Assembly (NCBI RefSeq): GCF_003334335.1
Contig: NZ_QOWQ01000004.1
Source of the DNA: Escherichia coli
GTDB lineage: Bacteria; Pseudomonadota; Gammaproteobacteria; Enterobacterales; Enterobacteriaceae
Length of the DNA stretch: 64,000 nucleotides
Reading direction: 5' to 3' (one strand)
Notes under the pieces: model-generated
The model's input: only the letters and a program-made list of their open reading frames with translations
Told to the model about the DNA's origin: nothing
The model's database searches: none
Position numbers and translations under genes: made by a program
Shown here: positions 42,981 through 46,268 of the stretch, one piece after another
Layout of the letters: every line of letters begins with the position of its first letter
Position numbering within the stretch: position 1 is the stretch's first letter

Positions 42981-43361
42981 TCAAGCAACCTGTACCGGAA
43001 TCGCTTTCGCGGTACGTTTCATTTCATTGTCGCCTTCAAAATAGGCGACGTTGGGTCGCCAGGTGCGAGCTTCTTCATCTGGCATGGTAACGAAGCTGGC
43101 GATGATGACAATATCGCCGACACTGGCGCAGTGGGCCGCCGCACCGTTAACAGAAATAATTCTCGAACCGCGTTCTGCCGCGATGGCATAAGTGGAGAAA
43201 CGCTTGCCGTTGGTGACATTCCAGATATCAATGGCTTCGTTTTCGAGAATACCGGCTGCGTCAAGAAAATCCTGGTCAATGGCGCAAGAACCTTCATAGT
43301 GCAGGTCCGCATGAGTCACTTTCACGCGGTGGAGTTTGCCCTGCAGCATCGTGCGAATCAT
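42981..43361 (-). CDS. panD: Aspartate 1-decarboxylase proenzyme PanD
   Basis: 126 aa; self-cleavage site ...HYEGSCAID. Confidence 0.97.
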
Positions 43362-43634
43362 AACTTCTACCTTTCTACCCTGTCGTTAACGAAGCAGGCG
43401 ATGCCTGCTTTGAGGAAATTCTCACGCAGTATTGCCCGATTTTTGTTTAGTGTCTACTCATCTGACGGCATTTGCGTCAGCAGTTTGCGTACCGCGCCGA
43501 AGCGTGCCATGTATCGCCTGTAACGAATTGATATTTCTCTGAACGCTGCTCGGTAAACAATAAAGAGGTGGCTGACGATAGCGCGCCTTGACTGGATACT
43601 GCCTTCACGCAAAGCCACACGGAAGACAGGGAAG

Positions 43635-44537
43635 ATGGATGCACCGAGTACCACACCGCATGACGCGGTATTTAAACAATTTTTAATGCATGCGGAGACG
43701 GCTCGCGACTTTCTGGAGATACATTTGCCAGTGGAATTACGCGAACTTTGTGACCTCAACACGCTTCATTTAGAGTCGGGGAGTTTCATTGAAGAGAGCC
43801 TGAAAGGACACAGCACGGACGTGCTCTATTCCGTGCAAATGCAGGGCAATCCCGGTTATCTGCATGTTGTGATTGAACACCAAAGCAAGCCGGATAAGAA
43901 AATGGCCTTTCGCATGATGCGTTATTCTATAGCCGCCATGCACCGGCATCTGGAGGCTGACCACGATAAGCTGCCGCTGGTGGTGCCGATACTGTTTTAT
44001 CAGGGCGAGGCCACACCTTATCCGCTATCAATGTGCTGGTTTGATATGTTTTACTCGCCGGAGCTGGCGCGACGCGTCTATAACAGTCCTTTCCCGCTGG
44101 TGGATATCACCATCACACCGGATGACGAAATCATGCAACATCGGCGGATTGCGATTCTCGAACTACTGCAAAAACATATTCGCCAGCGCGACTTAATGTT
44201 ATTGCTTGAGCAACTGGTCACGCTGATCGACGAAGGGTACACTAGCGGAAGTCAGTTAGTTGCCATGCAAAACTATATGCTGCAACGCGGTCATACTGAA
44301 CAAGCGGATTTGTTTTACGGTGTGTTGAGAGACAGGGAAACGGGAGGGGAGTCTATGATGACGCTGGCGCAGTGGTTTGAAGAGAAAGGGATTGAGAAGG
44401 GGATTCAGCAGGGAAGACAGGAAGTAAGTCAGGAATTCGCCCAGCGTCTTCTGAGTAAAGGAATGTCTCGGGAAGACGTTGCAGAGATGGCAAATTTACC
44501 TCTTGCTGAGATTGATAAGGTAATTAACCTTATTTAA
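43635..44537 (+). CDS. rpnC: Recombination-promoting nuclease RpnC (YadD; transposase_31/PDDEXK family)
   Basis: 300 aa ORF recognised as YadD/RpnC; sits between panD and panC. Confidence 0.93.
   Translation: MDAPSTTPHDAVFKQFLMHAETARDFLEIHLPVELRELCDLNTLHLESGSFIEESLKGHSTDVLYSVQMQGNPGYLHVVIEHQSKPDKKMAFRMMRYSIAAMHRHLEADHDKLPLVVPILFYQGEATPYPLSMCWFDMFYSPELARRVYNSPFPLVDITITPDDEIMQHRRIAILELLQKHIRQRDLMLLLEQLVTLIDEGYTSGSQLVAMQNYMLQRGHTEQADLFYGVLRDRETGGESMMTLAQWFEEKGIEKGIQQGRQEVSQEFAQRLLSKGMSREDVAEMANLPLAEIDKVINLI
44355..44537 (+). other. Candidate internal in-frame small ORF (60 aa) within rpnC 3' end, possible RpnS-type intragenic protein
   Basis: Tandem ATG ATG preceded by strong SD-like gggagggga 5-8 nt upstream; in frame with rpnC; encodes MMTLAQWFEEKGIEKG...KVINLI. 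Confidence 0.45.
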
Positions 44538-44577
44538 GTTACCTGTGTTATGACAGATGACGTGGGGTAAATTAATA

Positions 44578-44605
44578 ACTGGCGCCATCAGCCGTAGCGC
44601 CAGTT
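44578..44605. terminator. Bidirectional hairpin between convergent rpnC and panC
   Basis: actggcgc-catcagccgta-gcgccagt (approximate). Confidence 0.6.
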
Positions 44606-44610
44606 AAGTA

Positions 44611-45462
44611 TTACGCCAGCTCGACCATTTTGTTGTCGATCAGGCGAGCATCGCCAAGCCAGGCGGCTACCAGAATTACTGCCCGTTTGCTGGTTTCAGA
44701 AACTTCCAGCAATGTGTCGGCATCGCGAATCTGAATATCATCGGCGCGGAAGCCTTTTTCATTCAGTTCTTGCCCCGCAATGGTAATAATTTCATCGAGA
44801 TCCCGTTCCCCAGCCTGCAATTTGTCAGCAATCGAACTTAAAACTTTGTACAGACCAGGCGCAATTTTGCGTTGTTCCGCCGTCAGATAACCGTTACGGG
44901 AACTTAGCGCCAGACCGTCTTTGGCGCGCATAATTGGCACACCGACAATCTCAATATCGAAGCCCATATCGGCAACCATTTTGCGGATCAGCGCCAGTTG
45001 CTGAAAATCTTTTTCACCGAAGCAGGCGATGTCCGGCTGGACCAGGTTGAACAGCTTGCTGACAATAGTCGAAACGCCGCGAAAATGTCCCGGACGGCTG
45101 GCACCTTCCAGCATGGTCGAAAGGCCAGGAACGTCAACGTAAGTGTGGGTTTCAGTACCGTTCGGGTAGATCTCTTTTACCGAAGGGGCGAAAACTAAAT
45201 CCACTTTACGTTTGTTTAGCTTCTCGCAGTCCTCCTGCAAGGTCCGTGGATAACGAGCCAGATCTTCCGGGCGGTCGAACTGCATCGGGTTAACGAAAAT
45301 ACTGACGACGACCACATCGGCGCGGGCTTTGGCTTCGTCGACCAGCTTCATATGGCCATCGTGCAGGTTACCCATGGTAGGCACCAGCGCCACGCGCTTG
45401 CCTTCCATACGCAGGCGGCGAATTTGCTGACGCAGCAGCGGCAGGGTTTCGATAATTAACAC
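44611..45462 (-). CDS. panC: Pantoate-beta-alanine ligase PanC
   Basis: 283 aa; [10 protein letters not shown] motif. Confidence 0.97.
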
Positions 45463-45473
45463 AACGTGACTCC

Positions 45474-46268
45474 TTAATGGAAACTGTGTTCTTCGCCCGG
45501 ATAAACGCCGGACTCCACTTCAGCCATATACTGCCGCACAGCCGCGCGGATGTCGCCCGTTTCGGCGAGGAAATTTTTAGCGAATTTAGGAATGTGACCG
45601 CCGGTAATACCAAAGGCGTCGTGCATCACGAGGATCTGCCCGTCAGTGACGTTGCCTGCGCCAATGCCAATAACCGGGATCGCCAGTGCTTCGGTAATAC
45701 GTTTTGCCAGTTCAACCGGCACGCATTCCAGCACCAGCAGCTGTGCCCCAGCAGCTTCTAAGGCTAATGCATCGCTGAGCAGTTGATCGCCCGCTTCATC
45801 GCCGCGCCCCTGAACTTTGTAGCCACCGAAAATATTCACTGACTGTGGTGTTAAACCTAAGTGACCACATACAGGAACGGCACGTTCGGTCAGCATTTGT
45901 ACGGTTTCTACCAGCCACTCACCGCCTTCAATTTTGACCATGTTAGCACCGGCACGCATAACCGTTGCGGCGTTTTCGAAGGCTTGTTCCGGCGTGGCAT
46001 ACGCCATAAACGGCAGGTCAGCCAGCAGCAGGCAGTTTGGTGCGCCGCGACGTACGGCGGCAGTGTGGTAGGCGATATCGGCAACGGTAACTGGCAGGGT
46101 GGAGTCGTGCCCCTGAACCGTCATGCCCAGCGAATCGCCCACCAGCATGACGTTAAGCCCTTCATCAGCAAAGAGTTTGGCGAAGCTATAGTCATAAGCG
46201 GTGATGGTCGCGAAACGTTTTTTTTCCTGTTTGTACTTCTGCAGTAAGGAGATGGTGGTCGGTTTCAT
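45474..46268 (-). CDS. panB: 3-methyl-2-oxobutanoate hydroxymethyltransferase PanB
   Basis: 264 aa ORF recognised. Confidence 0.97.

Follow-up and report, generated by a model that had tools for sequence, protein, structure and literature searches.

An old rpnC insertion between the pantothenate genes panC and panD of Escherichia coli, mapped to its junctions

The interruption of the Escherichia coli pantothenate cluster by rpnC was recorded when the cluster was first sequenced (the original paper is cited in Text S1 of PMC5350276), and the insertion between panC and panD was later analysed, together with its phylogenetic distribution, by Kingston et al. (2017; PMC5350276). In that paper, residues D11, D63, E82 and Q84 of RpnA are given as functionally important, RpnA is described as cleaving DNA in vitro with little sequence specificity, and overexpression of RpnC is reported to raise RecA-independent recombination 2.9-fold, with a viability loss of 59% and late SOS induction, RpnC being weaker than RpnA at inducing both recombination and toxicity. 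The Rpn family was linked to a toxin/antitoxin and anti-phage role by Zhong et al. (2023; PMC10400941), whose work established the nuclease toxin with an intragenic antitoxin. According to that paper, the RpnC_S protein was detected and has antitoxin activity, and phage protection is documented for the plasmid-encoded RpnP2, not for RpnC itself. Both the rpnC insertion and its function are already known. What is added here is a nucleotide-level map of the junctions, their position relative to a predicted panD promoter, and a leader shared by the rpn paralogs; neither the junction map nor the ~150-nt leader of the five K-12 paralogs was found in the searched passages of the two papers.

The window analysed, a stretch of 64,000 nt from E. 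coli contig NZ_QOWQ01000004.1, is K-12-like, its rpnC being 100% identical at the DNA level to that of K-12 strains, and identical E. coli DNA in RefSeq carries the annotation panD, rpnC, panC and panB. The identities of the three pan genes were checked with NCBIfam equivalog models (Table 1). An earlier note on this DNA had placed panD and panC-panB on the minus strand with a plus-strand rpnC between them, over 42981-46268, and the list of open reading frames agrees; the convergent and divergent intergenic regions that it described around rpnC are likewise borne out, with spacers of 73 bp towards panC (convergent) and 273 bp towards panD (divergent). Among divergent E. coli strains, panD is 99-100% identical.

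Table 1 Features of the panD-rpnC-panC-panB region (positions in the window)
Feature	Position	Strand	Basis
panD, aspartate 1-decarboxylase	42981..43361	-	TIGR00223 equivalog, 228 bits
Conserved hairpin followed by T-rich tract, panD leader	43391..43412	-	RNAalifold
Predicted panD promoter: -35 TAGACA, 17-nt spacer, -10 AATACT	43428..43456	-	Consensus scan
Inserted segment, ~1.16 kb, each boundary +/- ~2 nt	43457..44613		Ends of homology between occupied and empty sites
rpnC upstream leader, starting at TTTGCGTAC	43484..43634	+	Homologous blocks upstream of other rpn genes
rpnC (yadD), full-length RpnC_L, 300 aa, PD-(D/E)XK recombination-promoting nuclease acting as toxin	43635..44537	+	TIGR01784, PF04754; toxin function as reported in PMC5350276
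RpnC_S ORF, 60-aa antitoxin, intragenic, in the rpnC frame	44355..44537	+	Sequence; start aligns with conserved MMTLAQWFEE block
Two 12-nt units, AAAGGGATTGAG and AAGGGGATTCAG, KGIE-type four-residue repeat	44385..44408	+	Copy number strain-dependent
Hairpin between convergent rpnC and panC, perfect 10-bp stem (12 pairs as counted by the scan)	44576..44606		Inverted repeat; terminator-like on - strand
panC, pantoate--beta-alanine ligase	44611..45462	-	TIGR00018, 439 bits
panB, 3-methyl-2-oxobutanoate hydroxymethyltransferase	45474..46268	-	TIGR00222, 441 bits

Comparison of the panD-panC interval across Enterobacteriaceae shows a patchy occurrence of rpn. PanC recovered representatives of 80 enterobacterial species. 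In 73 of them the interval from panC to panD measures 34-418 bp and lacks a full-length rpn gene; such a gene occupies it only in Escherichia (four loci) and Pseudocitrobacter/UBA5654 (three loci). The empty sites share the same compact architecture in more than 20 genera; Pantoea and Serratia are among the sequences with short panC-panD intergenic regions (70 or 223 nt) in Kingston et al. (2017; PMC5350276). When other enlarged gaps (262-290 bp in Kluyvera, and those of Raoultella, Kosakonia and others) were searched for rpn remnants by blastn, only the shared panD promoter element was matched; a genuine remnant turned up in Salmonella arizonae alone. The prevalence of empty sites indicates that the empty state is ancestral and that rpnC is an insertion.

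Within Escherichia, at least 80% of the insert is present in 5417 of 5426 complete E. coli genomes, the median genome having it at a single place, the pan locus. E. albertii and E. whittamii have the gene too, and its synonymous divergence resembles that of its flanks (dS between E. coli and E. albertii 0.33 for rpnC, 0.52 for panC and 0.26 for panD), so rpnC is old in this genus. The insertion predates the split of E. coli and E. albertii and is essentially fixed in Escherichia, and the suggestion of the earlier note that an ancient insertion has become fixed is supported by the empty sites, by the near-universal occupancy in E. coli and by this divergence. The GC content of rpnC is 0.488 and its GC3 0.545, against 0.54-0.58 for the flanks; no foreign-origin signal was detected in its composition or codon usage, the codon score lying within ~1.4 sd of the genes of the window. 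A composition like that of the flanks is compatible with an old insert as well as with a related donor, and insertion is not refuted by it. The note had also proposed that rpnC in all relatives, combined with flank-like composition, would give no sign of insertion; the composition does match the flanks, but presence in all relatives fails. Elsewhere in the window the yad fimbrial genes are clearly atypical in codon usage and composition, unlike rpnC.

Occupied and empty sites remain homologous as far as codon 283 of panC and, on the panD side, as far as (A)GTAGACA, so that the insert takes up the gap from the final panC sense codon to the TAGACA -35 box of a panD promoter-like element. Besides rpnC with its leader, the insert contains a terminator hairpin and the current panC stop codon. 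The panC gene is here 283 codons long, at least one fewer than in most empty-site genera, its stop codon being supplied by the insert; in empty-site genera the panC stop codon is the TAG of the TAGACA box itself. The junctions agree within 1-2 nt across every occupied lineage, and beside the right junction the lineages also have homologous insert DNA (GTACGCAAACTG, GAAACGACAC). Both TAGACA and GCAATACT show no variation across 14 aligned taxa and are found in most of the 80 species, and we infer from sequence that TAGACA-N17-AATACT would drive panD. In the panD leader, all five predicted pairs of the conserved hairpin show compensatory changes (RNAalifold, 31 distinct sequences); this hairpin sits directly downstream of panC in empty sites, where it probably acted as the panBC terminator. 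An Rfam search of 42500-46800 gave only chance-level matches (E above 0.2) and left the panD leader hairpin unmatched. The hairpin at the panC end of the insert is a predicted terminator of panC and probably also serves as rpnC terminator, the bidirectional role being a consensus-level prediction.

These junctions bear on the view that the pan cluster contained rpnC from the start and that most Enterobacteriaceae have since lost it by deletion. Losses do occur, since the panC-panD gap of Salmonella arizonae holds an RpnS-like remnant (tail) and one rpn copy of UBA5654 is frameshifted. Nevertheless, repeated deletions would have had to restore exactly a stop TAG inside the TAGACA box across more than 20 genera, and only a few related genera have an occupied site, so that we consider an ancestral rpnC very improbable.

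A repeat search over 43300-44700, of the kind proposed by the earlier note, returned short scattered matches and the hairpin between rpnC and panC, which is the sole strong inverted repeat located at an end; no pair links positions 43457 and 44613, the mapped ends, as terminal inverted repeats would. A target-site duplication was likewise absent from the junction alignment, the sequence on the left (...GAGCTGGCG) having nothing in common with that on the right ((A)GTAGACAC). The note had seen neither feature, and search and alignment both confirm it.

The leader of rpnC, ~150 nt long, is common to all five K-12 rpn paralogs and, in homologous blocks, recurs upstream of the rpn genes that other genera have at the pan locus. 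It contains a candidate rpnC promoter (-35 CTGACG at 43572-43577, -10 GATACT at 43595-43600), an assignment read from the alignment, with 8 of 12 matches and thus under the scan threshold. RNAalifold predicts no pairs in the leader consensus, and the conservation is therefore probably at the level of DNA or promoter. The K-12 paralogs share only 67-72% DNA identity, which marks them as old duplicates rather than products of recent transposition.

RpnC matches the Rpn family model TIGR01784 over its full length (298.4 bits, curated cutoff 52.1), and residues 7-207 match Pfam PF04754 (Transposase_31) with an E value of 3e-87, while the NCBIfam model "ISNCY family transposase" gave 322 bits, below its cutoff of 583. 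RpnC and RpnA are 49% identical across 290 residues, and D10, D62, E81 and Q83 of RpnC align with the four RpnA residues named above, the PDDE motif being conserved. A PDB sequence search with RpnC gave no match at E values up to 0.5; the Rpn model is absent from PADLOC 2023, where RpnC gave only weak matches, to its C-terminal tail. The double ATG of RpnC_S (ATGATG at 44355) is preceded by the ribosome-binding site GGAGGGGAG at 44343-44351. In an alignment of Escherichia RpnC alleles, the EKGI/QEVR-type units differ in number among K-12, LF82, GN04592, E. whittamii and E. albertii, LF82 having one unit fewer and GN04592 a long QEVR array, and 44200-44600, at the 3' end of rpnC, is a local peak of divergence (identity ~88%) among the divergent E. 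coli compared.

One reading of these matches, the original "Transposase_31 / ISNCY" annotation, is that rpnC represents an insertion sequence, degenerate or of an unconventional kind, whose product acts, or once acted, as its transposase. Besides the Pfam match and the NCBIfam match below cutoff, the five K-12 paralogs with their common upstream leader would fit such an element, as would the behaviour of rpnC as a single-gene unit of presence and absence. However, rpnC lacks terminal inverted repeats and a target-site duplication, it stays at a single fixed locus with a median of one place in each E. coli genome, its K-12 paralogs are old duplicates, and its product has the PD-(D/E)XK fold, which is not that of a transposase; no autonomous transposase with this fold is known. 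New rpn insertions were seen neither in laboratory nor in wild strains, according to both papers (PMC5350276, PMC10400941). The insertion-sequence reading is already largely refuted, and we give it hardly any weight. Of the "PDDEXK/transposase_31-like" label in the earlier note, the PD-(D/E)XK and PF04754 matches stand, but "transposase" is a historical annotation with no evidence of transposition behind it. RpnC is a PD-(D/E)XK nuclease toxin with a nested antitoxin, not a working transposon.

As to a vehicle, Rpn-family genes are found on 4675 plasmid records, but the genuine plasmid copies listed are less than 57% identical to RpnC. Six further records lie at 60-80%, and the plasmid-filed matches of at least 90% lie on very large replicons, of 0.4-4.9 Mb, some of which are apparently chromosomes. 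All ten matches in the phage collection are less than 60% identical, some of these records being bacterial contigs. The panD and 5' end of rpn on p140_MLI109 were considered as a mobile rpnC and rejected, as they form a chromosomal yadE'-panD-rpn' fragment trapped among IS elements.

With good confidence, we propose that the rpnC cassette was inserted horizontally into an ancestral panBCD cluster and is not autonomously mobile, a toxin-antitoxin or defence module that settled there harmlessly. A cassette of ~1.16 kb, with its own leader and promoter, gene and terminator hairpin, would have entered past the final panC sense codon and directly before the panD -35 box, which may have been the only harmless slot. 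It would have given panC a new stop codon and terminator while panD retained its own promoter and leader, and pantothenate synthesis would thereby have been left undisturbed. The cassette encodes the DNA endonuclease toxin RpnC_L and, from the internal start in the same frame, the short antitoxin RpnC_S, the number of whose four-residue repeats may set the toxin-antitoxin pairing; the antitoxin-encoding 3' end of rpnC appears to be still diversifying. We infer a single original insertion; homologous recombination within the conserved pan flanks would later have carried it from one genus to another.

Repeated independent, site-specific (homing-like) insertions at panC/panD, in the Escherichia and the Salmonella/Pseudocitrobacter lineages separately, perhaps because Rpn cuts a preferred target and the invading gene is copied in when the break is repaired, offer a less likely alternative. 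In Kingston et al. (2017; PMC5350276), two independent insertions are favoured, because rpnC of FGI 57 groups with Salmonella and its panCD with Escherichia. This incongruence of trees is joined by the protein divergence, the Escherichia-type and Pseudocitrobacter-type Rpn being 63-65% identical as against 89-98% for PanC, PanD and PanB, and by the dS between E. coli and Pseudocitrobacter, which is 1.85 for rpn and about half that (0.9-1.0) for the pan genes; identical junctions are, moreover, the expected product of a site-specific mechanism. On the other hand, the neighbouring yadE has a dS of 1.57, and we regard that of rpn as no higher. In every lineage the homology of the insert reaches both junctions, and independent insertions would therefore need defined element ends, yet in Zhong et al. 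(PMC10400941) the ends of rpn regions generally vary and carry neither terminal inverted repeats nor target-site duplications, and the little sequence specificity of RpnA cleavage (PMC5350276) does not suggest a preferred target. The permissive slot spans a few nt at most, so that selection alone could force identical junctions, and transfer of the occupied allele by recombination in the pan flanks would explain the incongruence with one insertion. Identical junctions would be explained equally well by a single event followed by allele transfer.

More speculative, and in our view improbable, is that the rpn cassette is itself a defined homing-like unit, made up of a short 5' hairpin, the ~150-nt leader beginning with TTTGCGTAC, the gene and the 3' hairpin, with the overlap of panC stop and panD -35 box (…GCG^(C)AG TAGACA) as its target. 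Such a unit, if real, would account for the nucleotide-identical junctions in Escherichia, Pseudocitrobacter/UBA5654 and Salmonella; a single insertion with recombinational spread is a simpler account of the same data.

Under our preferred reading of one horizontal insertion, the locus shows in textbook fashion how a selfish or defensive gene can lodge harmlessly within a core biosynthetic cluster. For annotation, the "transposase" label on Rpn genes should not be taken as evidence of mobility, and the junction map and shared leader could aid tests of how rpn cassettes move or are regulated.

Among described systems, RpnC of E. coli K-12 (YadD, b0132) is the same gene in the same panD-rpnC-panC context, with the internal RpnC_S and the KGIE-type repeats, and shows no difference. 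The biochemically characterised exemplar RpnA (YhgA) has a homologous upstream leader architecture and its gene likewise occupies an intergenic position and converges on the housekeeping gene bioH, but it has another C-terminal (RpnS) domain and no KGIE repeats. Insertion sequences resemble rpnC as single-gene inserts of ~1.2 kb that break an operon-like cluster and have several paralogs in one genome, whereas rpnC has no terminal inverted repeats, target-site duplication, recent copies, observed transposition or transposase fold. Homing endonuclease genes share with rpnC a DNA endonuclease product and the same site with identical junctions in separate lineages; unlike them, rpnC has no intron or intein context and no occupied/empty polymorphism within E. 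coli, and the family nuclease is described as non-specific in vitro (PMC5350276). Type II toxin-antitoxin and anti-phage genes also combine a toxic nuclease with a small cognate protein that neutralises it, and have a fast-diversifying specificity region, a patchy distribution through horizontal transfer and abundance on plasmids. In rpnC, however, the antitoxin is read in the frame of the toxin gene that contains it and not from a separate upstream gene, and the gene, unlike typical defence genes, is fixed in a core metabolic cluster and not in a defence island.

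That the pan cluster is interrupted was reportedly remarked on as early as its first sequencing. The window is E. coli K-12-like, with yadE upstream of the pan genes and the yad fimbrial operon downstream in the ORF list, and the 3288-bp panD-panB span is 100% identical to many E. coli chromosomes labelled panD, rpnC, panC and panB in RefSeq. The placement of rpnC between panD and panC-panB, as given in the earlier note, is thus borne out by the ORF list, NCBIfam, Pfam and the RefSeq labels. The middle ORF scores 298 bits against the Rpn family model TIGR01784 (cutoff 52), and its product matches two equivalog models, RpnA and "ISNCY transposase", with scores under the cutoffs, and Pfam PF04754 (Transposase_31) with an E-value of 3e-87.

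With PanC as query, 80 species representatives were recovered from the genome collection, and PanB, PanC, RpnC, PanD and YadE were mapped in each. In this comparison across Enterobacteriaceae, which the earlier note had proposed, the panC-panD gap is empty (34-418 bp, no full-length rpn gene) in 73 species, and an rpn gene occupies it only in Escherichia and Pseudocitrobacter/UBA5654. In Escherichia (L001-L004, E. whittamii and E. albertii among them) the copies show 93-95% protein identity to RpnC, except that the sequence of L001 stops inside the rpn gene, so that the C-terminal part alone was recovered (70-82% identical). Copies from Pseudocitrobacter/UBA5654 (L005, L007, L009) are 63-65% identical, and that of UBA5654 is frameshifted. 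The 418-bp gap of Salmonella arizonae holds an RpnS-like C-terminal remnant (ending in GKSEERRNIARCMLECGMTREAAAQITTLTDDEIGQIIRWR and a stop). Of this eroded gene, the RpnS-like coding end and a stretch of the leader survive, and the nuclease domain is gone.

The compact empty site common to Citrobacter, Klebsiella, Trabulsiella, Superficieibacter, Buttiauxella, Cedecea and others reads, from the end of panC, CAG TAG ACA-N17-GGGCAATACTG, a hairpin with a T-rich tract, and AAGGTAGA-N-ATG of panD. A consensus scan identifies, on the panD strand, a sigma-70-like promoter made up of TAGACA, 17 nt and AATACT, and the bases of both hexamers are invariant in a 14-taxon alignment; the panC stop codon of empty sites is therefore part of the presumptive panD -35 box. 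Junction alignment shows that in every occupied lineage panC codon 283 is the last position homologous with empty sites; a panC stop from the insert follows (TAA in Escherichia, TGA in others), and on the panD side homology resumes at (A)GTAGACA. The insert comprises, in order, a short hairpin, a leader of ~150 nt, rpnC and a 10-bp-stem hairpin predicted to terminate panC now. Neither terminal inverted repeats nor a target-site duplication were found at its ends by junction alignments and repeat search, in agreement with the earlier note, and Zhong et al. (PMC10400941) describe the ends of rpn regions as generally variable and devoid of both. The panD leader hairpin, retained beside the insert, shows compensatory changes across genera (~30 enterobacterial species) in all five predicted pairs, matches no Rfam family and probably doubles as the panBC terminator in genera without rpnC. 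The rpnC-panC spacer of 73 bp grows to 298 bp in O157:H7 and to 219 bp in E. albertii through an ERIC/IRU-like repeat (recognized by eye, without a model) between the panC stop and the terminator hairpin.

Coordinates of features at the pan locus and related loci (positions in the window unless a locus from another genome is named)
Feature	Position	Strand	Basis or remark
panD	42981-43361	-	ORF list, NCBIfam equivalog model
panD leader hairpin	43391-43412	-	
Promoter-like TAGACA-N17-AATACT, then leader hairpin with T-rich tract	43391-43456	-	
Insert	~43457-44613		1.16 kb; junction alignment, occupied versus empty
Shared leader, upstream of rpnC	43484-43634		sequence comparison of paralogs
rpnC	43635-44537	+	ORF list, TIGR01784
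RpnC_S start (ATGATG)	44355	+	RBS GGAGGGGAG before it, by sequence
Two 12-nt repeat units	44385-44408	+	sequence
10-bp-stem hairpin	44576-44606		inverted-repeat search and scan
panC	44611-45462	-	ORF list, NCBIfam equivalog model
panB	45474-46268	-	ORF list, NCBIfam equivalog model
yad fimbrial operon	46300-54000		
yacH region	26000-27600		
Shared leader, paralog copy	L087 ~4530-4679		
Shared leader, paralog copy	L088 ~14625-14780		
Shared leader, paralog copy	L089 ~14417-14570	-	
Shared leader, paralog copy	L090 ~10315-10472		
panC-panD gap with eroded rpn gene, Salmonella enterica subsp. arizonae	L023 6850-7267		
yadE'-panD-rpn' fragment, p140_MLI109	L081 5809-6779		NZ_CP117007.1 (E. coli)
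rpnC-panC spacer with ERIC/IRU-like element, E. coli O157:H7 SS17	L085 21076-21373		
rpnC-panC spacer with ERIC/IRU-like element, E. albertii	L004 2620-2838		

At least 80% of the insert is carried by 5417 of 5426 complete E. coli genomes. Between E. coli and E. albertii the dS of rpnC (0.33) sits alongside those of panC (0.52) and panD (0.26), and rpnC was therefore in place before the two split. Its composition is unremarkable (GC 0.488; GC3 0.545 vs. 0.54-0.58 in the flanks). The gene is thus flank-like in composition but not present in all relatives, and the earlier reading of an ancient insertion, now fixed in E. coli, therefore stands.

Kingston et al. analysed the pan locus in 32 genomes (PMC5350276, Text S1) and favoured two independent introductions of rpnC, naming as alternatives one insertion followed by losses, or the arrival of a whole allele from elsewhere. 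Their reading draws on FGI 57, in which rpnC groups with Salmonella and panCD with Escherichia (PMC5350276), and would also accommodate an E. coli-Pseudocitrobacter dS that is higher for rpn (1.85) than for the pan genes (0.9-1.0). However, the rpn value resembles that of the adjacent, weakly expressed yadE (1.57), and both rpn types have the same junctions, with homologous sequence right up to them: GTACGCAAACTG is common to Escherichia and Pseudocitrobacter (UBA5654 differs at one position), and GAAACGACAC to Pseudocitrobacter and S. arizonae. Selection alone could enforce identical junctions, since the room for a harmless insert measures no more than a few nucleotides. On balance one original insertion, spread or replaced via recombination in the conserved pan flanks, appears more likely than repeated site-specific insertion. 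By dS, the pan genes of Pseudocitrobacter are somewhat nearer to E. coli than those of Citrobacter, as co-transfer of flanks with the insert might produce.

Homologous blocks cover ~150 nt 5' of the start codon in all five K-12 paralogs (rpnA-E) and in the pan-locus rpn of other genera, opening at a TTTGCG motif directly after a hairpin. No consensus RNA structure was predicted in this shared leader, which probably holds promoter or regulatory DNA travelling with the gene. Plasmid records with Rpn-family genes number 4675, of which 3008 are conjugative; genuine plasmid copies among the matches listed share less than 57% identity with RpnC, and another six records match at 60-80%. The 140-kb plasmid p140_MLI109 carries, between IS elements, a chromosomal yadE'-panD-rpn' fragment ~95% identical to the window, with an apparently intact panD. 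As queries, the full panD-panB span matches at 77 plasmid places and the insert alone at 19. A few E. coli strains (NZ_CP029239.1 and NZ_CM194533.1, hits H1 and H41) have an IS element here, IS2 in the panD-panB span or IS1 in the rpnC insert. Genuine IS insertions are tolerated at the locus and bear little resemblance to rpnC.

The yad operon is hyperdivergent among E. coli (70-85% identity; no match in O157:H7), and this divergence fades gradually via panB into panC (87%, 93%, then 95% over 44600-46268). Because of this decay, panCB shares only 90-95% identity with K-12 in 2387 out of 5441 records (each replicon counted once). Such values are uncommon among core genes, and the pattern looks like hitch-hiking beside a locus under diversifying selection. 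The yacH region is another local stretch of divergence among E. coli, with 84-89% identity to B2-type strains and flanks at 97-99%.

RpnC is 49% identical to RpnA, and residues D11, D63, E82 and Q84, whose mutation inactivates RpnA (PMC5350276), align with conserved D10, D62, E81 and Q83 in RpnC. Overexpressed RpnC is described as raising RecA-independent recombination 2.9-fold, lowering viability by 59% and inducing SOS (PMC5350276). According to Zhong et al. (PMC10400941), an internal promoter and start in each rpn gene yield a small C-terminal protein, RpnS, which blocks the toxic full-length nuclease; RpnC_S was detected in cells, RpnC_L and RpnC_S no longer pair once either gains one KGIE repeat, some strains have a second, downstream rpnC_S copy, and a plasmid Rpn protects against phage. 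The window agrees with this scheme at the sequence level. Repeat number differs among Escherichia RpnC alleles, a 71-aa copy lies downstream in strain GN04592, and divergence among E. coli strains has a local peak at the rpnC 3' end (~88% identity at 44200-44600).

The observation is confirmed and its reading as an insertion supported, save for the label "transposase-like": RpnC keeps the catalytic residues of RpnA, and Zhong et al. reject the transposase assignment of Rpn proteins (PMC10400941). The insertion itself is already known, its phylogeny having been treated in 2017 (PMC5350276) and its function explained in 2023 (PMC10400941); to this we add a map of the junctions at nucleotide level, the finding that the insert lies between panC stop codon and panD -35 box, and the leader common to the paralogs.
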